From an uncultured Gemmatimonadota bacterium (GTDB lineage Bacteria > JAAXHH01): 64,000 nucleotides of DNA. The notes under the pieces are model-generated. The model saw only the letters and a program-made list of their open reading frames with translations, did no database searches and was not told where the DNA came from. The DNA is taken from the NCBI GenBank assembly GCA_951812955.1, contig OX638340.1, forward strand, positions 928,001-992,000, read 5' to 3'. Made by a program: the position numbers and the translations under genes. Positions 4,676-60,486 of the stretch are shown here, in pieces. Positions within the stretch are counted from its first letter, which is position 1, and every line of letters starts with the position of its first letter.

Positions 4676-5637
4676 TCATGGCATCGGCAACAACGGTCGG
4701 CATCGGCACGGGAAGCAACCGCCGCGAGAACGTGCGCGTGGCGGTGGAACGCTCCGCCCCGCAATTGGCCTCCCTCATGGGGGAAGAGGTCATGCTCAAG
4801 CCTAATTTCCTCTCCGGCACCAACCCGGTGGTATGCACCCACCCGGACGCGGTCCGCGGCGTGCTGGACGTCATCATGACCCTGCCGGAGAAACCGCGCC
4901 GGGTACTGATCGCAGAGGGCGGCAATGAATCCGTGCCGGGAGAGTGCTTCCGTCACATGGGATACACCGACATCCCGGACGAATACGACATCCCCATCGA
5001 ACTGGTGGACCTGAACCAGGAGACCAGGTGGCGAAATACCCGGGTGTACATGGTCGACGGCACCTGGACTACGGTCAGGATGCCGCGTACCGTGCTGGAC
5101 TGTCCCTGCGTTATCTCGGTCGCCGTGGCCAAGACCCATGACGGCGCCATGGTTACCCTGGCGCTGAAGAATCTCATCATGGGTACGATATTGAAGAAAG
5201 ACCGAATCAAGGTCCATGGCTATACGACCCACCACGACCGGCGCCATCCTCCGGAAGCCCGGGCGCTCAGCAGGAACCTGATCCGCCTCGCCCGCCACCT
5301 CTACCCCCACTACAGCGTGGTGGACGGTACGGTCGGCATACAGGGTAACGGTCCAGGGGGAACTGACACCGTGCCGCTGGGCCTGGCGGCGGCCGGGGAG
5401 GACACCATCGCCGTGGACGCCGTCATTTCAAAGGCCATGGGATTCGAACCATTGGAGGTGGGAACGGTATTCTACGGGGACGCAATCGGCCTGGGCGTGG
5501 GCGATCTGGAACGCATCTGCGTGAACGGCGGACGGCTGGATGAACTTGCCCTGTCCTTCAAGGGGCATGAATCCATCGATCTGCAGCGTCAGTGGGCTTT
5601 CGAAGGCGCGTGGGAATCGGCGGCGGTCGGCGGTTGA
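4672..5637 (+). CDS. DUF362 domain protein
   Basis: The start codon overlaps the mqnA stop (ATGA), which suggests translational coupling. DUF362-like composition (KPNF..., VVDG, GNGPGGTD). Its stop codon lies inside the first unit of a 22-bp tandem repeat. Confidence 0.55.
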   Translation: MIMASATTVGIGTGSNRRENVRVAVERSAPQLASLMGEEVMLKPNFLSGTNPVVCTHPDAVRGVLDVIMTLPEKPRRVLIAEGGNESVPGECFRHMGYTDIPDEYDIPIELVDLNQETRWRNTRVYMVDGTWTTVRMPRTVLDCPCVISVAVAKTHDGAMVTLALKNLIMGTILKKDRIKVHGYTTHHDRRHPPEARALSRNLIRLARHLYPHYSVVDGTVGIQGNGPGGTDTVPLGLAAAGEDTIAVDAVISKAMGFEPLEVGTVFYGDAIGLGVGDLERICVNGGRLDELALSFKGHESIDLQRQWAFEGAWESAAVGG

Positions 5638-5706
5638 AACGGCGGCGGTCGGCGGTTGAAACGGCGGCGGTCGACGGTTGAAACGGCGGCGGTCGACGGT
5701 TGAAAC
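5619..5706. repeat. Four tandem copies of the 22-bp unit ggcggcggtcg(g/a)cggttgaaac, plus a partial fifth
   Basis: Read directly from the sequence. Each unit repeats the last codons of the DUF362 gene (AAVGG) together with the TGA stop. It lies in a convergent intergenic region. Confidence 0.9.
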
Positions 5707-5737
5707 GGCGGGGACACAGGCATCTACAGGTTTGAGA

Positions 5738-7006
5738 TCAATGCCCCGGCAGGACATCTGGGACGCGCAGCACCTCTTCTTCCGTGTTGTAGAAGTGCGG
5801 TGAAATGCGAATGCCACCCCCGCGGCGGGCGCCGATAATCTGGTGGCTTCGCAACGTTCGATGCAGGTCTTCGGTCTCGTGGACCGGGCTGTCGAAGGTC
5901 ACGATACCCGACCATTCGGACTCGCCCCGTGGACTCAGGACGCGGAAGCCCGAGTCGCACAGGGCTTCGGCCAGTCGGTCGGTCAACTGGCGCAGCCTCT
6001 CCTGTACAACGTCGATACCCACCTCCAGCAGCAGTTCCAGCGAAGCCCCCAGCGCGTGTATGCCCAGCGTGTTGTGGGATCCGCATTCGAAGCGGCGCGC
6101 CGTCGGCGCCGGGGTCGGATCGTAGACGTCGTAGTTGCCCGCATTAGCCACCGAATTCCAACCCACCTCGTAGAGCCTCAACTGCTCGGTCATGTGTGGC
6201 GCGCAGTAGAAGATGCCGATCCCTTCGGGACTCAGAAGCCATTTGTGTCCATCGGCCGTGAGGATGTCGATATTCATCGCATCCACGTCAACCGGAGTCT
6301 GACCGAGGGATTGTATGGCGTCGACGACGAAACAGACGCCCTTTTCCCGGCATAGAGCGCCGATCGCAGCAATGTCGTTGCGGAATCCGTTACCGTACTC
6401 GACGTGGCTGATGGAGACTGCGCGCGTCCTGGAATCGATCCTGTCCGAGATCGCATCCACCGTGAGACGGCCGTCCACGGACTTGACCATCCGCGTTTCC
6501 ACTCCGTCTCGCGAGAGATTAAGCCACGGATATACGTTGGATGGAAATTCGAGGTCGTTCAGGACCACGTTGTCGCCCCTGCGCCAGTCGATGCCGTTGG
6601 CGGCAAAACAGAGCCCTTCCGTGGTATTCTTGACAAATGCGATCTGACTGGGATCGGCGTTGATCAGCCTGGCCGACCGGGACCGGGCGGTCTCGATAGC
6701 CGATTCCCAGTCGCGGTAGTTGGAGGCGGCGTACTCGCTGAAATCCGCTGCATAGGCTCGCACGGCCTCGAAGGCGCGGCCGGGCAACGTGCCGACCGCA
6801 GCGTGGTTCAGGTAGGTACAGTGGTGGACAACAGGAAATTCCTGGCGGATGCGGTCCAGGTTCAATAGAGGCCGTTCCGGTTCTGCGGGAAGGAGCAGGT
6901 TGGTGACTGCCGCCGATTGATGCGAAGCCGGGATCGATTCGAAAGCGGTCCGATCAGAAACTTGCCGCGGCGTCCTCCGTCGAGTCGAAAATATTGAATA
7001 CGGCAT
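5738..7006 (-). CDS. Class V PLP-dependent aminotransferase / cysteine-desulfurase-like; start uncertain, probably internal near 6865-6898
   Basis: ADGHKW PLP-lysine motif and class V fold. The listed ORF 5' end overlaps the upstream STAS gene by 52 nt, so a later CTG or TTG start is likely. Confidence 0.7.
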   Translation of the reverse strand: MPYSIFSTRRRTPRQVSDRTAFESIPASHQSAAVTNLLLPAEPERPLLNLDRIRQEFPVVHHCTYLNHAAVGTLPGRAFEAVRAYAADFSEYAASNYRDWESAIETARSRSARLINADPSQIAFVKNTTEGLCFAANGIDWRRGDNVVLNDLEFPSNVYPWLNLSRDGVETRMVKSVDGRLTVDAISDRIDSRTRAVSISHVEYGNGFRNDIAAIGALCREKGVCFVVDAIQSLGQTPVDVDAMNIDILTADGHKWLLSPEGIGIFYCAPHMTEQLRLYEVGWNSVANAGNYDVYDPTPAPTARRFECGSHNTLGIHALGASLELLLEVGIDVVQERLRQLTDRLAEALCDSGFRVLSPRGESEWSGIVTFDSPVHETEDLHRTLRSHQIIGARRGGGIRISPHFYNTEEEVLRVPDVLPGH

Positions 7007-7286
7007 CCAGTCGGGTTACGACGACGAGCACGTTGTGCGTGCGTTCGCTCAGGTTGGCCAGCCTCAGGTCGCCTCCGGCCTCGCGGAGGGTCTTGGCGCT
7101 GCCTACGAGCGCGCCGACACCGGAACTGCTGATGAGGTTCAACCTGCCGAGATCTACTACGGCTCCGGTCGTACCTTCGGACTTCAACGCCCTTACACGA
7201 TCGTGGAAGGCGGTCACTTCGGGATCGCCCAGGAAGCTGCCAACGAGTTCGATAACCGGTACTCCGTTAATCCTGCGTTCGTTCAT
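6954..7286 (-). CDS. STAS-domain anti-sigma factor antagonist (SpoIIAA-like)
   Basis: 110-aa protein MNERRINGVPVIELVGSFLGD...LISSSGVGAL with a conserved phosphorylatable Ser motif. The ATG is at 7284-7286 on the minus strand. Confidence 0.7.
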   Translation of the reverse strand: MNERRINGVPVIELVGSFLGDPEVTAFHDRVRALKSEGTTGAVVDLGRLNLISSSGVGALVGSAKTLREAGGDLRLANLSERTHNVLVVVTRLDAVFNIFDSTEDAAASF

Positions 7287-7504
7287 TACACGTCCCCTTC
7301 GTCTGTACGCTGCTGAAGCGAAAACCGGCCTTTTGAATGTGCCATCATTAAACACCTCGTATTCGGTTTCCGCAAGGATAAATTGCGCGGGGGCAGGTAG
7401 ACCCGTCCGGGGCATTGGTGCGGCAGGGACGCGGCAGAGCAGCGGCACGGCAGGGACGCGGTGTGCACGACGGCCGTCCGTCCATTTCCTGCACCTGCCG
7501 ATGG

Positions 7505-9199
7505 TCACGGATTCGACGCGAAAACGGCGGTCTCGGCGCCCGCGGCGCTGTATCCCGGGCAGAACCCCGCCTCGATGTAGGGACAGGGACTCCGGGCGAT
7601 GATCACGCGGATACCTGCCTGGCGCAGGCCCTTGCCGATCACGTCTCGTGTCCGGACTTCGTCCCACGGATCGACGGTTTCGTTCAGCGAGACCGGACAG
7701 GCTCCCACGATATCGTCTATACTAAGCGCCGTCGTCTCGTGGCCCAGTTCGGTTCCGCCCAGGTTGGGTGTACCCTGGAACCCGGACAGGGCCGTCGTGG
7801 CGTTGTCCAGTATGAGGATGAGCAGATCCGACCCCTGGTGGACCACATTGAACAGCGCGTTTGCGCTCAGGTGGAAGAAGTCGGAATCCCCGACGACGGC
7901 AATCACCGGGTCGGTCACGCCGGACAGAACGAGACCCGATGCGATTCCGATGCTCGAACCCATGGAATACTTCACGTCGAGCATCTCGAAGGGCGGCGTA
8001 TTGATCTTGATCGCGCAACCGGGATCGACCACGTACACCGGCGACATGCCGTATCGCGCACTCAAATCGCGCAGGATTTCGAAAACCGGTGTATAGGGGC
8101 AGTTCGACGGCAGTCCGGCCTCGCTGGGCAGGTACTTCTGTTCGTCTTCCGGCGAGAAGTCTCGGTCGGGTTTATAACCGGGGACGAAACCGGCCAGGGA
8201 CTCCGCGATCTGCCAGCGGAACAACTCCCCTTCCCGCGGCACGGCCCGGTCGTGCTTGCCGCTGACCGGCGTCGATATCTTCGCATCATAGGCAACCGAC
8301 TTGATCAACGTTTCCAGAAAGGGCTCGTTCTCTTCCAGTACCAGGGTTTTCTCCGTCGAACGTAGAAATCCGGTGATCTGGTCGGCGGGCAGCGGCCACA
8401 GGGTGGACAGCTTGAGGATGGACAGACCGGAAGTGTCCGCCCCATGAAGCACGTCCATCAACTTGGTGTGAATTACGCCCGCGGCGATTATGCCGGTCTT
8501 TCCCGTGCCGGTTACGGTGTTGAAATCCGCCCGTTCGAAATGCCGCGCGATCGATTCGAGCCGGTCGTGCAGACGCCTGTGCAATCGGACGGCGTTTCCG
8601 GGAACCGAAATCCACCGCATGGGATGCCGTTCGAAGGCATGGGGCCGCACGTAAGTCGTACGAGGAATCTCTGGTCGTTCCAGTTCTTCTTCCATCGTGC
8701 CGAAGGATTTCGTGATCCGCACGATGAAGGGCATCTGCGTTTCGCGGGAAAGCCGGAACGCCTCCCGCGTCATTGCGATCCCTTCCGAGGGTGTCGCCGG
8801 TTCCAGCATGGGCAGTTCGCTACCCCAGGCGATCGGACGGGTATCCTGGTCGTTCTGGGAGGCCCATGCGCCCGGATCGTCCCCGAGCAGGATGACCAGC
8901 CCCGCGCCCACGTCCGTCAGGTTGGCCACCATGACGGCGTCGAGTGCGACGTTGAACCCGACGCCCTTGCACCCCATCAGGGCCGGCACCCCTCCGATGG
9001 ACGCGCCGACCGCCGTCTCAAAGGCGACCTTTTCGTTGGCGGACCATTCAACGTGCAGACCGTGACTGTCCACGAAGCCGCGCAGGAACTCGATGGTGCT
9101 GCTGCTCGGCGAACCAGGATAGCTTGTCGCCACCGCGACACCCGACTGCAGTGCGCCGTAGGCGATGGCCTGGTCACCGGTGATTCGCATCCCGGCCAC
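7505..9199 (-). CDS. Indolepyruvate/2-oxoacid:ferredoxin oxidoreductase alpha-subunit-like TPP enzyme (IorA-like)
   Basis: Full-length IorA-like N-terminal and TPP-binding regions. The C-terminal ferredoxin domain is short or absent, and there is no adjacent iorB. Confidence 0.6.
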   Translation of the reverse strand: MAGMRITGDQAIAYGALQSGVAVATSYPGSPSSSTIEFLRGFVDSHGLHVEWSANEKVAFETAVGASIGGVPALMGCKGVGFNVALDAVMVANLTDVGAGLVILLGDDPGAWASQNDQDTRPIAWGSELPMLEPATPSEGIAMTREAFRLSRETQMPFIVRITKSFGTMEEELERPEIPRTTYVRPHAFERHPMRWISVPGNAVRLHRRLHDRLESIARHFERADFNTVTGTGKTGIIAAGVIHTKLMDVLHGADTSGLSILKLSTLWPLPADQITGFLRSTEKTLVLEENEPFLETLIKSVAYDAKISTPVSGKHDRAVPREGELFRWQIAESLAGFVPGYKPDRDFSPEDEQKYLPSEAGLPSNCPYTPVFEILRDLSARYGMSPVYVVDPGCAIKINTPPFEMLDVKYSMGSSIGIASGLVLSGVTDPVIAVVGDSDFFHLSANALFNVVHQGSDLLILILDNATTALSGFQGTPNLGGTELGHETTALSIDDIVGACPVSLNETVDPWDEVRTRDVIGKGLRQAGIRVIIARSPCPYIEAGFCPGYSAAGAETAVFASNP

Positions 9200-13609: not shown

Positions 13610-14383
13610 TCAACTGATCAGTAGCCGTTCCAGTTTCTTGTGGATTCGTTCGTCGTCCCCGTCGATACGATGGGCCTTGAGCAATTCGTCGATCGCCCGG
13701 GCGTTTTCCCCCATGATCTCGAAAATGGATCCCAGTGCGTAGTGGGCCGCGAAATTGGTAGCGTCGAGTTCGAGGGCCTTCTGGTACTCACCGATCGCGA
13801 AGTCCCATTTCTCCTGACGGACGTAGATTTCCGCGAGACTCATATGGACTTCCGAAACATCACCATCCCAGCGTAACGCTTCCCGGTATGAGACGACGGC
13901 TTCATCGTACATCGTGCGCCGTTTGTACACCATGCCCAGGAGTTTGTATGCGTCGCCGTTCCGAGGTGATCTGCGGATGACTTCCCGGAAGCAGTTGGTC
14001 GCTTTTTCGAATTCGCCGAGATAGCAGTAGATTCTACCAAGATCCTGAAAAAGGACATCGGTGCGATACCCGCCTTCGAGGGCGTTCAGCATGTATCCGC
14101 GGGCTTCGCTGTAGCATTCCTGCTTCATGTAGATCAGGCCGATATCATACTGTACCGCAACTTTCTTCGGATACTCCCTGGCACACTTGCTGAGCCACTC
14201 GAAGGCCTCACTCGTGCGGCCGGTATACATGAGCCCAAGGCCAAGGCCCCGCAGGGTCCAGTAGTCGGTCTGGTGTTGCTCCAGGCGCTCGAAGCAAAGG
14301 CGCACAATGGTTTCGTAGTCCTTCTTCGCCAGGAGGAGCTTGAGCTTATGAGACCAAAACCACATATTTGTTTTCTCTTCCAA
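13610..14383 (-). CDS. Tetratricopeptide (TPR) repeat protein
   Basis: Repeated 34-residue A/Y/L-rich helical motifs (AxxYxxLGxxY...). Confidence 0.7.
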   Translation of the reverse strand: MEEKTNMWFWSHKLKLLLAKKDYETIVRLCFERLEQHQTDYWTLRGLGLGLMYTGRTSEAFEWLSKCAREYPKKVAVQYDIGLIYMKQECYSEARGYMLNALEGGYRTDVLFQDLGRIYCYLGEFEKATNCFREVIRRSPRNGDAYKLLGMVYKRRTMYDEAVVSYREALRWDGDVSEVHMSLAEIYVRQEKWDFAIGEYQKALELDATNFAAHYALGSIFEIMGENARAIDELLKAHRIDGDDERIHKKLERLLIS

Positions 14384-20236: not shown

Positions 20237-20276
20237 CCGACGCCGCCCGCGGGATTCATGCGTCGTGTTCCCGTTC

Positions 20277-20369
20277 TCCGGATGACATTCAATCCGTCCC
20301 CCGGTCCCGCAGCATCGTGTTCCAGCTCGCCGGATGCCATTCAAGCAGTCCCCTGGTCCCGCAGCATCG
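20277..20369 (-). repeat. Duplicated sulP 3' terminus: two imperfect copies of about 40 bp, one encoding the real C-terminus MLRDQGTA* and the other MLRDRGTD* just downstream
   Basis: Read from the sequence on the minus strand. The second copy is frame-shifted relative to sulP. Confidence 0.8.
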
Positions 20370-31300: not shown

Positions 31301-31370
31301 CGCCCCGCGCGCATGATCAGTGGGAGAACGCCCGCCACCCGCGGCGCCTGCATCACCGGCGAAAGGAGGG

Positions 31371-32252
31371 ATGATGCAATCGCAGAAGGCAGATGAGATC
31401 AACGTGGACGACCGGGACTGGCGCGCGTTGACCCGGGGCGAGCGTATCCGGATGATCGAAGAGGAGGGCTATCTGATCATACCGGACTGGATCCCGCCCG
31501 GCTATCTGGCGGAACTGAAAGCGGAATGCAGAAAACTCGAAACGGTCGGACGGGACTACAGCGAAAAGCAACGGGGCTGCAGGGATCCCCACCTGAGCAG
31601 CCGGAAACTGGCCGAACTCATCGCCTACGAACCCACTGTCGCATTCCTGGAAGCGTTGTTCGGCGACCGACTCGTTTTTATTCACTATACCTACGACCGG
31701 TCCGAGCCCGGCACCCCTGGCATCAGTCTACATACCGACGGTCAGCCCTACGGATCCAAGATATTCGGTTACGAAGGGAGTTGTCCCATCACCGTGCGGG
31801 TACTCTACTATCTCGACGACCTGACGATGGACGTATCACCTTTCCGGGTGGTTCCAAGGTCCCATCTCTGCATGCACGCGGACGCCCATCCGTACAAAAG
31901 GTACGACGGGCATCCCGAAGAGGTCGTCGTACCGTGCACCGCGGGTTCGGCGCTGTTTCTCAACCACCGGACGTTTCACGGCACCCTGCCCAACAGGGGA
32001 AACCGCTCGCGCGCCATGCTTGCGGTGGCTTACCGACCGGCCTGGGCCGGTCCGATCGTGGACGTTGCGCCGCGGGACCCGGCTGACCTGGAACGGATGC
32101 CCGATTCCGTCCGTCCCTTCCTGGGCGACCCGAGCATGCGATCTTACGAGTTCGGTGTTGGCAACAAACCCGAGGGGATGTCGGCCGGCGCGCCGGGGAT
32201 GAACCCAAGCAGGTGGGAAAGCCCGCGTGAGGGACGCGCGCGGAAAGCGTAA
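31371..32252 (+). CDS. PhyH family Fe(II)/2OG dioxygenase
   Basis: PhyH-like core with the His-x-Asp...His triad context. An AGGAGG Shine-Dalgarno lies immediately upstream of the ATGATG start. Confidence 0.68.
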   Translation: MMQSQKADEINVDDRDWRALTRGERIRMIEEEGYLIIPDWIPPGYLAELKAECRKLETVGRDYSEKQRGCRDPHLSSRKLAELIAYEPTVAFLEALFGDRLVFIHYTYDRSEPGTPGISLHTDGQPYGSKIFGYEGSCPITVRVLYYLDDLTMDVSPFRVVPRSHLCMHADAHPYKRYDGHPEEVVVPCTAGSALFLNHRTFHGTLPNRGNRSRAMLAVAYRPAWAGPIVDVAPRDPADLERMPDSVRPFLGDPSMRSYEFGVGNKPEGMSAGAPGMNPSRWESPREGRARKA

Positions 32253-32394
32253 GCCCCGCATGAGGGACGCGTTGAGGGACGCGCGCGGGACGAGTGAGGG
32301 ATACGAACGCTAAAACGCGGTATCTTCGCGGACCAATCGGTTTTCAATCGGCCACATTATCTAAAGATCGACATGCAACCATAGGAGAAAGCAC

Positions 32395-33039
32395 ATGCCG
32401 AAGGCCCTGTTCGTCTGGGGTGGCTGGGAAGGACACGAACCCAGGCAGTCCCAGGACATCTTCGTCCCGCTGCTCGAGGCGGAAGGATACGAAATCGCGC
32501 AGCACGACTCGCTTGACGCCTACCTGGACGCCGAAGCCATGCCCACGTACGATCTCATCGTACAGACCGTGACCATGAGCACGATCACCGGCGCGCAGGA
32601 GAAAGCGCTCCTGGATACGGTCGCCGCCGGCGCCGGGTTCGGGGGATGGCACGGCGGCCAGGCGGACGCCTTCCGCAACAACACGAACTACCAGTACATG
32701 GTGGGAGGGCAGTGGGTGTCCCACCCCGGCGGTATCATCGACTACGAAGTCAACATCATCGATCACGAGGATCCCATCACGGCCGGGTTGAACGACTTCG
32801 CCATGCGCTCGGAGCAGTATTACATGCACGTCGATCCGGGCAACCAGGTGCTTGCGACCACGACCTTCAGCGGGGAACACGACGCGTGGATCGAGGGAAC
32901 CGTCATGCCCGCCGCATGGAAGAGACCGTGGGGAAAAGGCAAGGTATTCCACTGCACGCTGGGTCACGTCGCCGCCGATTTCCACGTGCCGGAAGCGCGG
33001 GAAATCGTCCGGCGCGGGCTGATCTGGTGCACCCGTTGA
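32395..33039 (+). CDS. ThuA-like protein with a type-1 glutamine-amidotransferase-like fold
   Basis: ThuA family length and motifs ([18 protein letters not shown]). Confidence 0.55.
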
Positions 33040-33157
33040 TATTATTCTTTACTTTGTTGATTCAGATATATATATTATCGGGAACAGCACGGAGGATCAG
33101 GCTACTGATCGCAAACCGCAACTATCCCTACAGCAAGCCATTTGCAGGAGGAATGTC

Positions 33158-33790
33158 ATGGCGTTACGTTTAATGGACGAAGCCCCGGATTTCACAGCCG
33201 AAACCACCGAGGGAACGATTCGTTTTCACGAATGGCTCGGTGACAACTGGGGCATTCTCTTTTCCCATCCCGCGGATTATACGCCGGTCTGTACCACGGA
33301 ACTGGGTTACATGGCCAACATCGCGCACGAGTTCGCCAAACGCAATGTCAAGGTCCTGGCCATCAGCGTGGATCCCCTCGATTCCCATCGTGGCTGGATC
33401 GGCGACATCAACGAGACGCAGAACGCGAACGTAAGCTATCCGCTGATCGCGGACCCCGACCAGGAAGTCGCCCAGCTGTATGATATGATCCACCCGAACG
33501 CGAACGACAAGATGACCGTGCGGTCGGTATTCGTCATCGGGCCGGACAAGAAGATCAAGCTGATGCTGACCTACCCCGCGTCCACCGGCCGGAACTTCGA
33601 CGAGATCCTGCGGGTTGTGGATTCCCTGCAGTTGACGGCCAATCACAAGCTGGCCACGCCGGTGAACTGGACCAGTGGGGAAGACTGCATCATCGTGCCG
33701 GCAGTGACCGACGAAGAAGCGGACCAGACCTACTCCGACATCCGTCGCGTGAAGCCCTACCTGCGTTACGTGAAGCAGCCCCAGGACTGA
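33158..33790 (+). CDS. 1-Cys peroxiredoxin (Prx6 subfamily)
   Basis: DFTPVCTTE peroxidatic cysteine motif and Prx6-like length. Confidence 0.85.
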   Translation: MALRLMDEAPDFTAETTEGTIRFHEWLGDNWGILFSHPADYTPVCTTELGYMANIAHEFAKRNVKVLAISVDPLDSHRGWIGDINETQNANVSYPLIADPDQEVAQLYDMIHPNANDKMTVRSVFVIGPDKKIKLMLTYPASTGRNFDEILRVVDSLQLTANHKLATPVNWTSGEDCIIVPAVTDEEADQTYSDIRRVKPYLRYVKQPQD

Positions 33791-33821
33791 TTGCGGTCGA
33801 GAAGGGCCGTTGCAATACGAT

Positions 33822-33855
33822 AAAAGGCGCCTCAACCGGGGCGCCTTTTTTATTT
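33822..33855 (+). terminator. Rho-independent terminator: GC-rich hairpin (aaaaGGCGCC, loop, GGCGCCtttt) followed by a T-run
   Basis: Read from the sequence, 30 nt downstream of the peroxiredoxin stop. Confidence 0.6.
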
Positions 33856-33867
33856 GGTAATATATGC

Positions 33868-33896
33868 TTGACTGGCGCTCCGTTATCCCGTATGAT
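33868..33896 (+). promoter_or_regulatory. Near-consensus sigma70 promoter: TTGACT, 17-nt spacer, TATGAT, driving the SPFH gene
   Basis: Exact hexamers and spacing read from the sequence. A GGAGGG Shine-Dalgarno precedes the ATG at 33953. Confidence 0.5.
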
Positions 33897-33952
33897 ATCA
33901 TAATGATATTATTTTGTTACCCATCTTACCAGTGTTTCAAGGAGGGGAAGTA

Positions 33953-34855
33953 ATGATAACGGAACGAATACCGTTGAAATTCAACGGCTGGAGAGCGTTG
34001 GCCTGGCTGATCGTCCTGTTTCCTTTGACGATGGTTGCTATGGATTTGGTCATTACGTTCAACCCACCAGTTCTGGAGCAGGAAATGAGCGTCAGAGACA
34101 TTCTTCTGCTGGTGTTTTTCTTCATACCGGCGCTCGTCGCATTGGGATTTTGCTTCAAGGGATTCTTCACGCTGGAACCGAACGAAGCCAGTGTGCTAAC
34201 GCTGTTCGGCAAGTACACCGGAACGGTAAGGGAACAGGGATTCTGGTGGGTGAATCCCCTCAACGGCAAAAAGAAGATCTCCCTTCGAGCCAGAAATTTC
34301 GACAGTGAGCGATTGAAGGTGAACGACAAAAACGGCAACCCGATCGAAATCTCGGCCGTCGTGGTCTGGCGCGTGGAAGATACCGCCCAGGCGAGTTTCG
34401 AGGTGGACGATTTTATCGAATACATCCAGGTTCAGTCCGAATCGGCAATCCGCCATCTGGCCACCAGCTACCCGTACGATCTGACCGAGGGGGAGACCGC
34501 CAGCCTGAGGTCATCCATCGAAGAAGTTTCCGAAGCGCTCGGCAACGAAATACAGGAACGGGTCGGCGCGGCCGGAGTTTCGGTCACTGAGGCACGGATC
34601 AACCACCTGGCTTATGCCCCGGAAATCGCGCAGGTGATGCTGCAGCGGCAGCAGGCCGATGCCATCATCGCCGCCCGTCAGAAGATTGTGGACGGCGCGG
34701 TGGGCATGGTGGAAATGGCCCTTGAAAGACTCAAGGAACAGCAAGTGGTCGATCTGGATGAAGAACGCAAGGCGGCCATGGTGAGCAATCTTCTCACGGT
34801 GCTCTGCAGCGAATCGTCCACGCAGCCTATCGTCAATACCGGTTCGCTGTACTGA
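33953..34855 (+). CDS. SPFH/band-7 (stomatin/prohibitin-like) membrane protein with two N-terminal TM helices
   Basis: Two N-terminal TM helices followed by an SPFH domain and a coiled-coil-like C-terminal region. GC is markedly lower than the flanking genes. Confidence 0.7.
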
Positions 34856-34893
34856 CGGGATCGACTGTTCTTTCAACGGTGGAAGCCCGAGGG

Positions 34894-34960
34894 CCTCAAA
34901 CGCGCGCCGGATCCCCCATCTCATGCCCGGATGCTCGGAGGCGGCGCGCAGCGTTTGAGG
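34894..34960. repeat. Imperfect inverted repeat (about 16-19-bp arms, about 33-nt loop) immediately downstream of the SPFH gene
   Basis: cctcaaacgcgcgccg ... cggcgcgcagcgtttgagg, read from the sequence. Confidence 0.6.
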
Positions 34961-34993
34961 AAATTGACGCGAGAATCCAGGTAACCTGTTATC

Positions 34994-35161
34994 GTGCCGG
35001 ATAAGAAGAAATCCCTGCTGTTGCGAATCAACACCGAGCTCTGGAATGACCTCAATGCCTGGGCGAAGGATGAATTGCGTAGCGTGAACGCGCAGATCGA
35101 GTATATTCTTCGGGAGGAAGTGCACAGACGGAAGAAACGACGGCGACGCGAGGAAGATTGA
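34994..35161 (+). CDS. 55-aa ribbon-helix-helix (Arc/MetJ-like) DNA-binding protein with a basic C-terminal tail
   Basis: GTG start. SLLLRINTELWNDLNAWAKDELRSVNAQIEYILREEV matches the Arc-type RHH pattern. Not in the ORF track (<60 aa). Confidence 0.45.
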   Translation: MPDKKKSLLLRINTELWNDLNAWAKDELRSVNAQIEYILREEVHRRKKRRRREED

Positions 35162-35241
35162 AGAGATCGAAACGTGTGCAGGTATACTTGTACGGGTGTT
35201 AATGTACACGCGTGGCCAAGCACGGGGTAGCTGTCATGGGT

Positions 35242-35289
35242 GGCGGACCGGCGGACCGGCGGACCGGCGGACCGGCGGACCGGCGAACC
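35242..35289. repeat. Octamer microsatellite (ggcggacc) x5 plus a variant copy
   Basis: Read from the sequence, between the RHH gene and the next PhyH gene. Confidence 0.9.
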
Positions 35290-35329
35290 GGCAAATCAGC
35301 GGTCGCGTATTTGATCCGGAGACATTGAA

Positions 35330-36190
35330 GTGGCGGTGGAAACGAACACGGACCTGGACCGATACGAGACTACGGGATTTGTGATTCTGAAGGGATTCTA
35401 TCCCGACACGGTCGTAGCGGCGGCCCGGGACGCCGCGGCCGAGCTCGTCGAACGGTTCGCGAAACGGCTTATGTCGTCGGGCACGGTCTCCCGGGATCAT
35501 GCCGAGGCATCGTTTGAAACGCGCCTGGCCCGGCTCTGTGAGGATGCCCCGGACGAAGCGCCCCACATATTTCGTAAGGAACTCCACCTGGCGGGTATGT
35601 ACGACGTGTTTTTCTACCCGCCCCTGCTCGATATCGTGGAATCCCTGATGGGCGAGGAACTTCGTCTTTATCCCAACTATTCCATCCGTCCCAAGCTGCC
35701 CGACCACGCCCCCACGCTCGTCCTCTGGCACCAGGACGGCGGGTATACCTACAAGGTCCACCGAGACGGGGACCACAGCGCGGAGACGGTCGATGCCCTG
35801 CGCATGATCAACGTATGGTCGCCGCTGGTCCCCGCCCGCGAGGACAACGGCTGCATGCAATTCATCCCCGGCACTCACCGAATCGGCATGGCCCGGCACG
35901 AAGACCGCGAATTCTACCTCGAGATATCGCAGGAGGACCTGGCGCCCTACGTGGACCAGGCCGTGTCCATCGAACTCGATCCGGGCGACATCGTCCTCTT
36001 CCACAACATGCTCTACCACCAGGGTCTGCCCAATCGCACCGACCAGGTAAGGTGGAGCATGGACTGGCGCTATCAGGACGCAAGGCAGTCCACGCTGCGC
36101 AGTACGCGGGGCCATCTTGCCCGCAGCCGCCAGTGTCCCGATGAGGTAGTACGTGACGCCAATGACTGGACCAGCCGTGTTTTTCAGTAG
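35330..36190 (+). CDS. PhyH family Fe(II)/2OG dioxygenase
   Basis: PhyH-like core (WHQDGGY...H...). GTG start with GGAG Shine-Dalgarno. The stop is followed by a 2x direct repeat of cggccgcgcagact. Confidence 0.72.
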   Translation: MAVETNTDLDRYETTGFVILKGFYPDTVVAAARDAAAELVERFAKRLMSSGTVSRDHAEASFETRLARLCEDAPDEAPHIFRKELHLAGMYDVFFYPPLLDIVESLMGEELRLYPNYSIRPKLPDHAPTLVLWHQDGGYTYKVHRDGDHSAETVDALRMINVWSPLVPAREDNGCMQFIPGTHRIGMARHEDREFYLEISQEDLAPYVDQAVSIELDPGDIVLFHNMLYHQGLPNRTDQVRWSMDWRYQDARQSTLRSTRGHLARSRQCPDEVVRDANDWTSRVFQ

Positions 36191-36313
36191 CAATCCGGCC
36201 GCGCAGACTTCGGCCGCGCAGACTCAGGCCGCCGAGGCCCTTTCTGGCGGCATGGCCACCCAATCCGTCCTCATCACCCAACCCGGCCCCATCGTCTTAT
36301 ACCGGTATTTCCT

Positions 36314-47229: not shown

Positions 47230-47469
47230 AGGGATTGAGTCCGGGGGAGGCCACAACGCGCGCGCGAAGTGCTCCCCCGGACCGTTGCAGGATATGATCC
47301 GTATGGCCAAAGATTATGTAAGTATGCTGTACGACCTCGCACGCCCATAATCACGTAAAACAATGATTGTTTACGAGATTATCCCGGTTTCTCCGACTAT
47401 ACATTTCAACATGCACTTCACTTCCGGTTTCGCCGCGGCGCAGGTATGTATGGTTGAGGGTCCTCGATT

Positions 47470-47790
47470 ATGGAACTCGCCCACCTGTTGTTAACGCCGG
47501 CCACGCTATTGACGGCCTTCATCTTCTTCTGGAATCAGGCAAAGACCGGAAGGGACGAACTCCGGCGGGAACTCAATACGGATATCGGGGAATTTAAAGA
47601 GGAATTGAAGGAGGAAATCATGGCCTTTCGCCGGGAAGTCGCCGCGGTCCGCGACGAAATGAAGGCCGAGATGAGGGAGGAAATCTCCCCCCTGCGGACG
47701 GAAGTGGCCGCCATCCGTACGGAAATGCACGACATGAATGGTCGCCTCGGACGTGTCGAAGGTCTGCTCAGAACGTCGGACGCCGGCTGA
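47470..47790 (+). CDS. Small membrane-anchored coiled-coil protein of unknown function
   Basis: One N-terminal TM helix then a charged heptad-like region (EFKEELKEEIMAFRREVAAVRDEMKAEMREEI). Its stop lies within a 2x 20-bp tandem duplication. Lower-GC context. Confidence 0.4.
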   Translation: MELAHLLLTPATLLTAFIFFWNQAKTGRDELRRELNTDIGEFKEELKEEIMAFRREVAAVRDEMKAEMREEISPLRTEVAAIRTEMHDMNGRLGRVEGLLRTSDAG

Positions 47791-54810: not shown

Positions 54811-54893
54811 ACAACCCCGGGCGCCGGTGAACAACGACACGGGCCAGGCAAAAAAGGTTGACATTACCTGGCAGGCTTCGCGGAACCTGGCGA

Positions 54894-54983
54894 GTCGTTT
54901 AGCCGCACGTAGTCGTTGGGGCGCGGGTCGTTTAGCCGTACGTAGTGTTTGTGACACGAGTCGTTTAGCCGCACGTAGTCGTT
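54894..54983. repeat. Three copies of the 24-bp unit gtcgtttagccg(c/t)acgtagt(c/g)(g/t)tt, separated by 9-bp spacers (period 33)
   Basis: Read from the sequence in a convergent intergenic region downstream of the M20 gene. Too short and too few units to be a CRISPR array; no cas genes. Confidence 0.85.
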
Positions 54984-54994
54984 TTGGCGCGCGG

Positions 54995-58990: not shown

Positions 58991-60486
58991 TGCGGCGTCT
59001 CCTGGACTGCCTGGTCTGCCTGGACTGCCTGGTCTGCCTGGTCTGCCTGGTCTGTCCGGTCTCCCTGTTCTGCCCGGTCTGCCCGGTCCGTAACCATTGC
59101 CATCAGGGTCGCTTCGGCGACGAGTTCATCGTTCACGTATGCCTTCCCTTCCATCTTGCAGGCGTGCATGCGCATTCGTTTCAGTTCCAATTCGAAGCGG
59201 ATCTGGTCGCCGGGTTTTACCAGTCTTCGAAACCTGGCATGATCGATGCCCATGAAATACGCCATTTTGCTCTTCGGTTCTTCAATCGTATTGAGCAGTA
59301 GCAGACCTCCGGCCTGTGCCATGGCCTCAACGATCAGGACGCCCGGCATGACGGGATGGCCAGGGAAGTGGCCCGCGAAAAAGGGCTCGTTGATAGTCAC
59401 GTTCTTGAGCGCTACCACGCGTTTCCCCGGTTCCATCTGGATTACCCGGTCGATGAGCAGAAAGGGATATCGATGGGGGAGAATGCGCAGGATGTCCTCG
59501 ATTTCGAGGACCGCTTCGGGTGCCGGCGCCGGTGAATCCATATTCCCTTTTTCCGGTTTCCTCTTAACGCCCGCATCGCGAATCCTTCGCACGAGCTCGA
59601 CGTTGGCGGAGTGGGAGGACCGCGCTCCGAACACCTGAGCCCTGAGCGGCGCTCCGAGCAGGGCCAGGTCGCCGATCAAGTCGAGCGCCTTGTGCCGGCA
59701 CGGTTCGTTGTCGAAGCGCAGCGGCCGGGTGCCCACAATTCCGTTCTCGCCGATGACCACCCTGTCCTCCACGCCGAACAGATCCTTCAACTCATCCAGT
59801 TCCTCCTCGGACAGGTCCATGTCCGCGATGACCACCGCGCTTTCCAGGCTGCCGCCCTTGATCAGCCCCTTTTCACGCAGGGCCTTGATGTCACTGAGGA
59901 AGGTCCAGGTCCGTGCCGGCGCGAATTCGGTTACGAACTCGTCTTCCAGGGAATAGAGCACGGTGTGCTGGCTGGCGAGATTTGATTTCTGGTAGTCGAC
60001 CATGTAAGTGAGATGGAAATCATCGGAAGGCATGACGACGAGTTCCTTCAACAGGCCGTTTTCCCGCTCCGAATAGAGCACGGGATTTTCCAGTTCCAGG
60101 TATTCCCTGGGCGCGTCTTGTTCGACGATTCCGGCTTCGATCAACGCGTTCACGAAAGGAATGGCGCTGCCGTCGCAAATCGGTGGCTCATCGCCGTCCA
60201 GCTCGATCCGGATGTTGTCCAGTCCCAGGCCCGCGACGGCGGCCAGGACGTGTTCCACGGTGTGTATCCGTACCCCGTCCCGTGCCAGGTTCGTCCCCCT
60301 GGTGGTATCGACCACGTAGTCGATATCCGCAGGGATTTCCAACCGGTCGGGATGGTCGACGCGTATAAACCGGATCCCGTCGTTAACGGTACCCGGCCTG
60401 AAAGTCAGCGTCGCCTGCCCGCCGGTATGCAAGCCTATTCCCTCAACGGATCTGGTGGATCCAATGGTACGTTGATTTTTAAGCAT
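58987..60486 (-). CDS. lpxC-fabZ: Bifunctional UDP-3-O-acyl-GlcNAc deacetylase / 3-hydroxyacyl-ACP dehydratase (LpxC-FabZ fusion)
   Basis: N-terminal LpxC domain (GIGLHTG, HTVEHVLAA) and a C-terminal FabZ hot-dog domain (PHRYPFLLIDRV, FFAGHFP). A 4-nt overlap with lpxA. A repeat-encoded (QAD)n C-terminal tail. Confidence 0.85.
   Translation of the reverse strand: MLKNQRTIGSTRSVEGIGLHTGGQATLTFRPGTVNDGIRFIRVDHPDRLEIPADIDYVVDTTRGTNLARDGVRIHTVEHVLAAVAGLGLDNIRIELDGDEPPICDGSAIPFVNALIEAGIVEQDAPREYLELENPVLYSERENGLLKELVVMPSDDFHLTYMVDYQKSNLASQHTVLYSLEDEFVTEFAPARTWTFLSDIKALREKGLIKGGSLESAVVIADMDLSEEELDELKDLFGVEDRVVIGENGIVGTRPLRFDNEPCRHKALDLIGDLALLGAPLRAQVFGARSSHSANVELVRRIRDAGVKRKPEKGNMDSPAPAPEAVLEIEDILRILPHRYPFLLIDRVIQMEPGKRVVALKNVTINEPFFAGHFPGHPVMPGVLIVEAMAQAGGLLLLNTIEEPKSKMAYFMGIDHARFRRLVKPGDQIRFELELKRMRMHACKMEGKAYVNDELVAEATLMAMVTDRADRAEQGDRTDQADQADQAVQADQAVQETPQ
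59001..59090 (-). repeat. Ten tandem copies of a 9-bp unit (cctggtctg and variants) encoding the low-complexity DQADQADQAVQADQAVQ tail of LpxC-FabZ
   Basis: Read from the sequence; in-frame (3-codon) repeat. Confidence 0.85.

Follow-up and report, generated by a model that had tools for sequence, protein, structure and literature searches.

A gene for an SPFH/Band-7 membrane protein and a very small reading frame lie side by side between a 1-Cys peroxiredoxin (prx) gene and a PhyH gene in an uncultured Gemmatimonadota bacterium, and the locus raises the question of what these two genes do together and whether they arrived recently in the genome that carries them. The window analysed here is a stretch of 64,000 nucleotides, in which the local order is prx-SPFH-RHH-PhyH; the genes adjoining the pair are metabolic, as judged from a profile scan of seven neighbouring proteins. 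Sequence comparisons indicate that the two genes make up an operon of their own, conserved and self-contained, in which an SPFH6-type gene is followed by a gene for an Arc-like ribbon-helix-helix (RHH) protein of about 55 aa. The sequence features that an earlier note had listed for this DNA were all found where it had placed them; the features of the region are collected in Table 1.

Table 1. Features of the SPFH-RHH region, with positions given in the window
Feature	Position	Strand	Basis and details
Intrinsic terminator of the upstream 1-Cys peroxiredoxin (prx) gene	33822..33849	+	12-bp stem, 7 GC pairs, then T-run
Sigma70-type promoter	33868..33896	+	TTGACT (33868-33873), 17-nt spacer, TATGAT (33891-33896); 10/12 consensus positions
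Putative operator	33894..33911	.	Comparative; box 1 GATATCA 33894-33900 on the -10, box 2 GATATTA 33905-33911, 11 bp apart
Shine-Dalgarno AGGAGG	33940..33945	+	Read from sequence; 7 nt before the SPFH ATG at 33953
SPFH/Band-7 membrane protein, 300 aa, SPFH6-type	33953..34855	+	Pfam Band_7 match
GC-rich imperfect inverted repeat, hairpin without U-tract, SPFH-RHH spacer	34894..34960	+	Two inverted-repeat pairs; fold z -1.4
Arc-like ribbon-helix-helix protein, 55 aa, GTG start, proposed autorepressor	34994..35161	+	Family profiles, conservation in relatives
Hairpin, 8 + 6 bp, just past the RHH stop, no T-run	35173..35210	+	-24.2 kcal/mol, z -1.3
Microsatellite (GGCGGACC), 6.4 copies, RHH-PhyH spacer	35242..35292	.	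TRF score 95

The two proteins and their pairing

The SPFH protein of the window matches Pfam Band_7 with 92.7 bits vs a cut-off of 23.6 (E 3.6e-26, residues 73-244) and is composed of an N-terminal two-helix membrane hairpin, the SPFH domain, a long helix and a conserved C-terminal tail. The AlphaFold model (pLDDT 69) has helices at residues 12-35 and 47-70, strands at 96-141 and a further helix at 223-262; its best Foldseek matches are stomatin (E 4e-10), HflK/C, prohibitin and QmcA. The positive-inside rule predicts that the two-helix hairpin anchors the protein and leaves the SPFH domain in the cytoplasm; a large oligomeric cage on the membrane would be the expected assembly, by analogy with stomatin, HflK/C and QmcA. 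More than 8000 homologues were found, and their mean column identity of 71% across phyla points to strong purifying selection; identity between phyla is 60-65%.

In the classification of Hinderhofer et al. 2009 (PMC2636767), the SPFH6 column of Additional file 1 holds YP_593931 (D. geothermalis), ZP_00739991 and NP_842851, and the table also lists the B. anthracis/thuringiensis group, B. thetaiotaomicron, Algoriphagus and Planctomyces maris. YP_593931 is the only SPFH protein in the D. geothermalis plasmid accession range; tblastn recovered SPFH copies of 50-65% identity in the SPFH6-listed taxa, and the window protein is 65% identical to the SPFH of D. geothermalis pDGEO01 and 51% identical to that of B. 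thuringiensis. We infer that it belongs to the SPFH6 subfamily, and the accessions were mapped to loci in the same way.

The second gene codes for a protein with a conserved core, KKSLLLRI...WAKDELRSVNAQIEYILRE, followed by a basic tail, which past a short basic patch is variable and of low complexity, without a conserved C-terminal toxin-binding extension. Taken alone, the window protein scores below the Pfam gathering threshold (ParD_like 17.5 bits vs 23; RHH_5 16.4 bits); among 70 members of the family, matches were obtained to RHH_5 in 56 (best E 7e-9), ParD_like in 38, Arc in 20 and HicB in 18. Comparison of the family with P22 Arc by hhalign gave E 1.8e-4 over 44 columns, in register, with the strand FLLRI facing FNLRW and the helix-B cap RSVN.QIE facing RSVNSEI, while PDB sequences, searched with a profile built from the family alignment, gave sub-threshold matches only, pArc (E 0.37) being in the correct register. 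The AlphaFold model of the monomer is a single long helix and does not confirm the RHH fold. These family-level RHH_5 and Arc profiles indicate that the small reading frame is a real Arc-like RHH protein, as the earlier note had proposed; its description as unannotated does not hold everywhere, since an identical protein, MCY4544573.1, is annotated as 'Arc family DNA-binding protein'. Some NCBI homologues carry the name 'HicB family antitoxin'.

The pairing of the two genes is observed directly and in both directions. Exactly one RHH homologue is present in 81 of the 89 SPFH-anchored loci, always downstream and on the same strand; starting from the RHH gene, SPFH is found upstream in 57 of 59 metagenome loci, counting those whose upstream sequence is 1 kb or longer. 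The pair occurs in Planctomycetota, Verrucomicrobiota, Bacteroidota, Acidobacteriota, Proteobacteria, Bacillota and Deinococcota, and the genes around it vary from phylum to phylum. The gap between the two genes is at most 30 nt in 36 of the 83 paired loci, a number that includes the window; in the window lineage the spacer is 138 nt long and contains a hairpin, and translational coupling is lost there. The terminal G[ST][LI]Y motif of SPFH is present in all of the RHH-linked loci (82/82) and in none of the six loci that lack both the RHH gene and the operator described below; these six, without RHH, operator and G[ST]LY tail, represent two independent clades. Such comparisons support the view that the SPFH and RHH genes are a functional pair.

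Promoter, operator and proposed autoregulation

The terminator of the prx gene is the 5' boundary of the module and separates the SPFH promoter from prx transcription. The near-consensus promoter and the strong Shine-Dalgarno described by the earlier note are both present, with the spacings given in Table 1; four promoter-like sites were found in 2.6 kb vs 1.3 expected. An internal promoter for the RHH gene (TTGACG-17-TGTTAT, 34966-34993) was rejected because its -10 has no A as the second base and stops 1 nt short of the GTG, so that a transcript starting from it could not include the start codon.

Two GATATC-type boxes lie on the SPFH promoter, and a third one is degenerate in the window (GTTACCC, 33916-33922). 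This operator is the sole site in the 64 kb with at most one mismatch to GATATCA-N4-GATATCA; for sites with at most two mismatches the chance expectation in the 64-kb window is 0.23. A scan of the window for further members of the regulon turned up only one operator-like site with two mismatches, at 14130. Upstream of SPFH (at most two mismatches, -200 to +60 of the start) the GATATCA-N4-GATATCA sequence is found in 68 of 87 loci, vs 5 sites in 552 kb elsewhere, and its consensus is a 28-bp palindrome of three boxes, gATATCAatATGATATCATAtTGATATCa; the same GATATC array is also found in Deinococcus, Bacillus and Parabacteroides. Related loci have equivalent promoters, with the -10 overlapping the strongest operator box, and among 35 strong promoters, 27 have a -10 hexamer beginning at -6, -3 or +2 of the central box. 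Thirteen RHH-positive loci fall outside the strict operator definition, and 12 of these have a TGATATC box farther upstream or with three mismatches. Every RHH-less locus also lacks the operator (Fisher p 2.6e-4, a value that ignores kinship and covers two independent clades). Conservation of the operator, its position on the promoter and its absence together with the RHH gene are direct observations; that the operator, with its boxes 11 bp apart on the promoter, co-varies with the RHH protein comes entirely from comparative genomics.

Negative autoregulation of the SPFH-RHH operon by the co-transcribed RHH protein is the best explanation of this arrangement and is considered probable. The sigma70 promoter would drive one transcript covering SPFH and the downstream RHH gene; RHH dimers would then bind cooperatively to two or three of the palindromic GATATC boxes, one helical turn (11 bp) apart. 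The boxes lie over the -10 and the transcription start, and bound RHH would block RNA polymerase, resulting in negative feedback on both genes of the operon. If recognition follows the Arc pattern, the outer G of each GATATC half-site may be read by the invariant Arg11 of the beta-strand, and the RSVN motif may clamp the phosphate backbone. DNA binding by RHH, repression and the inducing signal are the parts of this model that we infer; for derepression, our preferred guess is that the small repressor would be lost or sequestered under membrane stress.

The same operator could also belong to a toxin-antitoxin-like pair, in which an SPFH protein harmful when unchecked would be neutralised by binding of the RHH protein, which would repress the operon as well. 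The operator is of the autoregulatory type, the RHH family matches the ParD_like and HicB profiles, the 'HicB family antitoxin' name is in use for some homologues, and the C-terminal tail of SPFH co-varies with the presence of RHH; moreover, a toxin-first gene order is known in some toxin-antitoxin families, such as higBA and hicAB. However, the conserved toxin-binding extension is missing from the RHH protein, SPFH is not among the known toxin families and had no meaningful match in PADLOC, the pair is not patchy but highly conserved, with a single copy and kept synteny, and SPFH is present without RHH in two clades. This reading is very unlikely.

A further explanation, also unlikely, is that the small protein acts as a partner in the structure or assembly of the SPFH cage, replacing NfeD in function, and is not primarily a DNA-binding repressor, with the GATATC boxes bound by another factor. 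Such a role would suit the single long helix of the monomer model, the tight translational coupling of many loci, which suggests stoichiometric co-production, and the loss of the SPFH G[ST]LY tail exactly where the small protein is absent; other SPFH subfamilies also have obligate operon partners (PMC2636767). On the other side, profile matches assign the family to the RHH clan, and its members show both the RS-x-N helix-cap motif and a strand that resembles that of Arc and aligns with it in register, while a palindromic array with 11-bp spacing is typical of RHH proteins and here vanishes with the protein; the roles of repressor and partner, furthermore, are not mutually exclusive.

The autoregulation model can be extended, as a tentative and rather doubtful proposal, to a membrane-to-DNA switch made of the SPFH6 cage and the Arc-like repressor, where a ring of conserved cytoplasmic C-terminal tails (...N-T-G-[ST]-L-Y) would capture or release RHH dimers. 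The lead behind it is the co-variation of the G[ST][LI]Y tail of SPFH with RHH and operator; if it were true, operon transcription would serve as a read-out of how the membrane scaffold is assembled or loaded. In the PspA-PspF system, binding to a membrane protein or to the membrane determines how active the regulator is, and PutA, which has an N-terminal RHH domain, is likewise controlled by membrane association; these families are unrelated to SPFH-RHH and provide an analogy only for the speculative sequestration step.

Composition, repeats and origin of the region

The earlier note had read the region as a low-GC islet of recent horizontal origin, flanked by structured repeats and carrying a small stress or defence-type module. 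The dip in GC content is real, although it is smaller than the drop from roughly 65% to roughly 50% that had been reported, since the region 33800-35330 has a GC content of 0.549 vs a window mean of 0.608. Segments of 300 nt below 0.50 occur here only at 33701-34200, the deepest dip in the 64 kb, and a single other segment of this kind is found in the window, at 47301. The 33701-34200 stretch comprises the promoter/operator and the coding region of the transmembrane hairpin, whose GC2 is 0.32-0.37; the low GC is thus due to the AT-rich promoter/operator and to the amino-acid composition of the hairpin. Total GC of the SPFH gene (0.551) is among the lowest of 50 window ORFs. An atypical codon composition was not found, SPFH having a GC3 of 0.70 vs 0.756 +/- 0.072 for the 50 window ORFs.

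The two hairpins that were taken for flanking structured repeats fold no better than shuffled sequences (z in Table 1). The inverted repeat in the SPFH-RHH spacer is present in the window and in locus L010 only, and is absent from L011-L013, whose spacers measure 14-68 nt. This lineage-specific insertion is no part of the conserved module, and is not an intrinsic terminator because it has no T-run. Its identification as a REP/MITE element or a known RNA was rejected, as it is single-copy in the window, has no Rfam match and is absent in close relatives. The 5' half of the hairpin past the RHH stop (gaaacgtgtgcaggta) is kept in L010, L001, L011 and L013, and this hairpin is possibly the 3' end of the transcript. 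The microsatellite had been counted at five copies; the repeat is there, with the higher copy number of Table 1. It has about three copies in L010, a strain with 98% identity, and is absent or different in L001, L011-L013 and L003; it is hypervariable and lies outside the module.

Recent horizontal acquisition of a low-GC islet with a small stress or defence module is extremely unlikely. It would accommodate the deepest 300-nt GC dip of the window and the low GC of SPFH, and the occurrence of the pair in different neighbourhoods in different phyla, with a high identity of 60-65%, fits an ancient lateral spread, of the kind argued for SPFH genes generally (Hinderhofer et al. 2009; PMC2636767). 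However, relatives whose SPFH is 94%, 84% and 80% identical have both genes, in the same order, at this prx-PhyH junction; absence of the module at this junction was the test named by the earlier note, and it is present there in L001, L003, L004 and L010-L013. Moreover, SPFH GC3 is within one standard deviation of the mean, no tRNA genes are located between 28 and 40 kb of the window, and no integrase or bracketing direct repeats were found around the module. In PADLOC-DB v2 there was no meaningful match, none below E 0.005: SPFH gave only partial spurious ones (E 0.005 and 0.015) and RHH none. IMG/VR contains no relative, and copies in the plasmid collection are only on non-mobilizable megaplasmids or chromosome-like records; strong purifying selection is also unlike that of defence genes. 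'Phage' matches to SPFH come from short records without annotation, whose names refer to Enterococcus, Listeria or faecal samples, and are putatively host DNA. The region is not a recently acquired island. Of the functional reading proposed by the earlier note, the defence part found no support in the PADLOC and IMG/VR searches; SPFH proteins are generally linked to membrane stress, and by analogy a stress-type module is possible.

Relation to known systems and significance

The text of the 2009 classification states that subfamilies 6-12 'contain no documented member proteins' and that their accompanying genes are without identifiable conservation; a COG4877 neighbour for SPFH6 appears only in Additional file 1, where remarks of the type 'COG4877 not detected' imply the expectation of a small conserved neighbour (PMC2636767). 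This COG4877 neighbour is a candidate for the RHH protein described here; in that work the neighbour was not identified as RHH and no operator or regulation was described. Literature searches on SPFH with ribbon-helix-helix, Arc, HicB or CopG, on COG4877 and on SPFH6 found nothing relevant beyond Hinderhofer 2009, and no published description of the RHH identity or of an operator for SPFH6.

Besides strand and helix-B cap, the RHH protein shares its small size with P22 Arc and Mnt and with the MetJ/Arc superfamily (CopG, omega, ParD and the HicB RHH domain), and its putative operator resembles those of Arc and Mnt in having repeated palindromic boxes one helical turn apart that overlap the promoter. 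The Arc operator spans 21 bp, with half-sites 11 bp apart, and is bound by an Arc tetramer. Differently from Arc and Mnt, the window protein is not borne by a phage or plasmid and its family is obligately linked to a membrane-scaffold gene; the boxes are three rather than two, and the residue before RS, usually Gly, is Leu.

The pair also resembles the SPFH-NfeD operons (QmcA-YbbJ, YqiK-YqiJ, FloT-YuaF/NfeD2, FloA-YqeZ and PH1511-PH1510), which combine a predicted cage-type architecture with a small, dedicated, co-evolving and co-transcribed partner. Here, however, the partner is a soluble protein of the DNA-binding type and not a membrane OB-fold NfeD, and it is encoded downstream instead of upstream; no NfeD domain was found in the seven neighbouring proteins scanned, nor among the called genes of L001-L009.

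Bacterial SPFH proteins, among them flotillins, stomatins and HflK/C, have received wide study, yet for most subfamilies neither function nor regulation is known, and 6-12 were undocumented in the 2009 classification. With the operon described here, SPFH6 would gain a testable regulatory circuit, whose three parts are a promoter, a defined operator and an Arc-like repressor of its own, in hundreds of species of many phyla, including Akkermansia, Bacteroides/Parabacteroides, the Bacillus cereus group and Deinococcus. For annotators, these results are grounds to drop the 'HicB family antitoxin' label and to stop leaving the small gene uncalled. Finally, the proposed repressor and its operator sequence are conserved from Bacillota to Planctomycetota, which is unusual among RHH regulators.

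The conserved SPFH-RHH pair

The conserved unit at this locus is the pair formed by the gene for a 300-aa SPFH6-type membrane protein (SPFH) and the 55-aa Arc-like ribbon-helix-helix ORF downstream of it (RHH). Gene order was established by reading positions 33000-36200 together with the ORF list, and all the features listed by the earlier note at the locus are real; its observation is largely right. Two PhyH-family dioxygenase paralogues, the first at 31320-32252, flank the ThuA-Prx-SPFH-RHH block, an arrangement kept in the related loci L001, L003 and L004. A tandem repeat of 11/22 nt (CGCGTGAGGGA, about 7 copies, 64% matches; 32224-32301) runs from the 3' end of the first PhyH gene into the spacer ahead of ThuA; other tandem repeats of the window are found at 5614-5711 (22 nt x 4.5 copies, 97% matches), 20263-20369 (52 nt x 2.1), 54890-54991 (33 nt x 3.1) and 58997-59088 (9 nt x 10.3).

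Features of the SPFH-RHH locus (window coordinates)
Feature	Position	Strand	Remarks
1-Cys peroxiredoxin gene	33158-33790	+	AhpC-TSA and 1-cysPrx_C domains
Intrinsic terminator of peroxiredoxin gene	33822-33849	+	
Promoter TTGACT-17-TATGAT	33868-33896	+	10/12 consensus positions
AGGAGG	7 nt 5' of SPFH ATG at 33953	+	
SPFH/Band_7 protein, 300 aa	33953-34855	+	E 3.6e-26
SPFH-RHH spacer, 138 nt, with GC-rich inverted repeat	34894-34960 (repeat)	+	
55-aa ORF, GTG start	34994-35161	+	weak ParD_like, RHH_5 and HicB matches
Hairpin 3' of RHH ORF	35173-35210	+	
Microsatellite (GGCGGACC), 6.4 copies	35242-35292		
PhyH gene	35330-36190	+	

The SPFH neighbourhoods of Ignavibacteriales, Calditrichota, Latescibacterota and an unclassified 5.9-Mb genome are unrelated, yet in all four a 51-57-aa ORF aligning with the window RHH starts 2-20 nt after SPFH. 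A scan anchored on the SPFH alignment, with one genome per species, provided 80 loci, and RHH genes were searched in all six frames with a five-seed RHH HMM. Exactly one RHH homologue is present in 81 of the 89 SPFH-anchored loci, always downstream and on the same strand, and the gap is 30 nt or less in 36 of the 83 paired loci, a set that includes the window. Conversely, in an RHH-anchored metagenome scan a same-strand SPFH gene lies upstream in 57/59 loci, counting only those in which the sequence extends 1 kb or more upstream. The pairing is rarely broken: at two metagenome loci, L098 (2447-2677) and L155 (2492-2659), the RHH homologue is solitary, and the roughly 2.4 kb ahead of it contain no SPFH gene. 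Deinococcus geothermalis (small gene 'hypothetical protein' in RefSeq), Bacillus thuringiensis ('HicB family antitoxin') and Parabacteroides distasonis ('Arc family DNA-binding protein') also have the pair; the RHH family comprises 1710 representatives (50%-identity clusters, E <= 1e-10).

RHH proteins share a core, M..KKSFLLRI(D/N)P.LW.EL..WA.DELRSVNGQIEYLLR.AV.KRK, followed by a variable tail. Among 70 family members, Pfam matches are to RHH_5 (56/70), ParD_like (38), Arc (20) and HicB (18), and hhalign places 44 columns in register with P22 Arc (E 1.8e-4), pairing FLLRI with FNLRW and RSVN with RSVN; a protein identical to the window RHH, MCY4544573.1, is named 'Arc family DNA-binding protein'. 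The AlphaFold monomer (pLDDT 87.5) is one long helix with structural matches only to coiled coils, so that the putative ribbon-helix-helix fold draws its support from sequence profiles and operator architecture, not from the model. SPFH is highly conserved across phyla (71% mean column identity), and at the sequence level it resembles HflK, stomatin and QmcA only distantly (about E 1e-4). Its model comprises two N-terminal helices, the SPFH domain and a long helix; structural matches are to stomatin, HflK/C, prohibitin and QmcA. Since the N-terminus is basic and the inter-helix loop acidic, the positive-inside rule would place the SPFH domain in the cytoplasm.

Operator and probable autoregulation

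GATATCA boxes 11 nt apart were first seen when the upstream regions were aligned by eye. The pattern GATATCA-N4-GATATCA, with up to two mismatches, occurs on the coding strand between -200 and +60 of the SPFH start in 68/87 loci, and elsewhere at 5 sites in 552 kb on both strands. The consensus obtained as a frequency matrix from 70 loci, gATATCAatATGATATCATAtTGATATCa, consists of three GATATC palindromes, each a helical turn from the next, the whole being a 28-bp palindrome. The only window site with at most one mismatch is 33894-33911; across the 64 kb a single further match, weak and operator-like (TAGATCAGGCCGATATCA, 14130-14147; two mismatches), could be due to chance, 0.23 being expected at up to two mismatches.

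The operator lies on the promoter. Of 35 loci whose promoter scores at least 9/12, 27 have a -10 hexamer beginning at -6, -3 or +2 from the central box, and the box GATATCAT includes TATCAT within its own sequence; in the window, the -10 TATGAT shares bases with box 1 (33894-33900), and transcription is expected to start inside box 2 (33905-33911). RHH and operator are also absent together: the operator is present in 67 and absent in 13 of the loci with RHH, and present in 0 and absent in 5 of those that lack it (Fisher p 2.6e-4, phylogeny ignored). Twelve of the 13 misses do have a TGATATC box, either at a greater distance upstream or with three mismatches.

Negative autoregulation of the operon by RHH is the reading with the best support. 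RHH dimers would bind the two or three boxes cooperatively and, once bound, would occlude the -10 and the start site of their own operon; Arg11 may contact the outer G of each half-site, with RSVN as a putative phosphate clamp. Occlusion of its own promoter by an operator-bound protein is the arrangement of Arc, Mnt, CopG and RHH antitoxins.

The SPFH C-terminus may also take part. G[ST][LI]Y closes all the 82 RHH-linked proteins with a readable C-terminus, in some cases with a single residue after it (34823-34852 in the window); at the six loci devoid of RHH and operator, SPFH always ends otherwise (..SAGQQ, ..NAGGSVS, ..NAGTV, ..NAGNA). These six belong to two clades, Latescibacterota (L029, L031, L038) and Pirellulaceae (L045, L046, L069), and suggest that the SPFH assembly, at its cytoplasmic tip, is functionally linked to the putative repressor, two independent events being too few for proof. 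Because the tail co-varies with RHH and operator, an SPFH cage sequestering the repressor can be envisaged, a reading that we consider unlikely.

Genomic stability and lineage-specific elements

The earlier note had read the locus as a low-GC islet, suggestive of horizontal acquisition and possibly a stress or defence module, a reading that is not supported. The order PNT - PurT - PhyH - ThuA - Prx - SPFH - (RHH) - PhyH - ABC2 is common to the contigs encoding SPFH relatives 94%, 84% and 80% identical, in each of which the small RHH ORF, often left uncalled by the gene finder, was found; shared synteny of both genes was what the earlier note itself had set against recent acquisition. No tRNA genes occur in 28-40 kb of the window, and no bracketing direct repeats were found around the locus. 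A defence function is disfavoured by the absence of meaningful matches in PADLOC and of relatives in IMG/VR; plasmid-collection copies occur only on non-mobilizable megaplasmids or chromosome-like records. SPFH homologues number more than 8000. Seven phage-collection matches, H1-H7 (e.g. PQ520051.1, OR846799.1), encode about 50%-identical SPFH6 proteins; the 'phage' records in question are short, lack annotation and bear the names of Enterococcus, Listeria or faecal samples, and they are probably host DNA because IMG/VR has no SPFH6 relative. The records show that the SPFH6 family is present in Enterococcus and Listeria.

The GC dip is real, but its size was overstated: the region has 54.9% GC where the window averages 60.8%, and in 300-nt windows values below 50% are confined here to 33701-34200, the sole other such stretch being 47301-47600 (0.49). 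SPFH GC3 is 0.70, against 0.756 +/- 0.072 for 50 ORFs of the window, and GC2 is 0.32 in its hydrophobic N-terminus; the dip is due to the AT-rich promoter and operator and to second-codon positions of this N-terminus.

In a subset of Opitutae-type Verrucomicrobiota (L036, L040, L054, L055, L059, L063, L070, L082, L083) the module has three genes, with a bPH_5 protein of about 180 aa (two TM helices, bacterial PH domain, E 6e-11) encoded between SPFH and RHH; in Planctomycetota L032, L039 and L061 other genes, without Pfam matches, occupy this position. In the window's clade the spacer is a hot spot of insertion: it measures 14-68 nt in the relatives L011-L013, holds in the window a 67-nt inverted repeat restricted to it and to the 98%-identical L010, and in L001 and L002 carries, at the equivalent of 34856-34993, a 1.3-kb insertion with a DUF805 gene (in the 94%-identical L001, a DUF805 membrane-protein gene and a 74-aa ORF at 6904-8222). 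The microsatellite (GGCGGACC)n counts about 6 copies in the window against about 3 in L010, some 170-230 nt 3' of the RHH stop; elsewhere it is absent or different, with unrelated short repeats in L013. This hypervariable tract, about 40 nt 5' of the PhyH start, could affect PhyH expression. Neither hairpin at the locus folds better than shuffled sequence, and Rfam gave no match. Inverted repeat, DUF805 insertion, microsatellite and the hairpin 3' of RHH are lineage-specific and lie outside the conserved module.

Relation to known SPFH families

Prokaryotic SPFH proteins were divided into 12 subfamilies, of which 6-12 are said to 'contain no documented member proteins' and to have neighbours without identifiable conservation (Hinderhofer et al. 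2009, PMC2636767). The taxa in the SPFH6 column of its Additional file 1 (D. geothermalis, B. anthracis/thuringiensis, B. thetaiotaomicron, Algoriphagus, P. maris) are those where the present family was found. Exceptions are marked there 'COG4877 not detected'; therefore, a small conserved neighbour was recorded in 2009 and never interpreted. Our literature search found COG4877 in no paper, SPFH6 in none besides Hinderhofer et al. 2009, and no link of ribbon-helix-helix, Arc, HicB or CopG to a bacterial SPFH protein. The only partners mentioned in a survey from 2026 of SPFH proteins in P. aeruginosa are NfeD ones.

The locus is an ordinary-looking, chromosomally stable operon, and SPFH6, the Arc-like RHH and the GATATC operator of two to three boxes form a widespread, apparently undescribed regulatory module. 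It joins two known things, an SPFH operon with a dedicated partner and RHH autoregulation, and would be more interesting if the coupling between SPFH tail and repressor were true.
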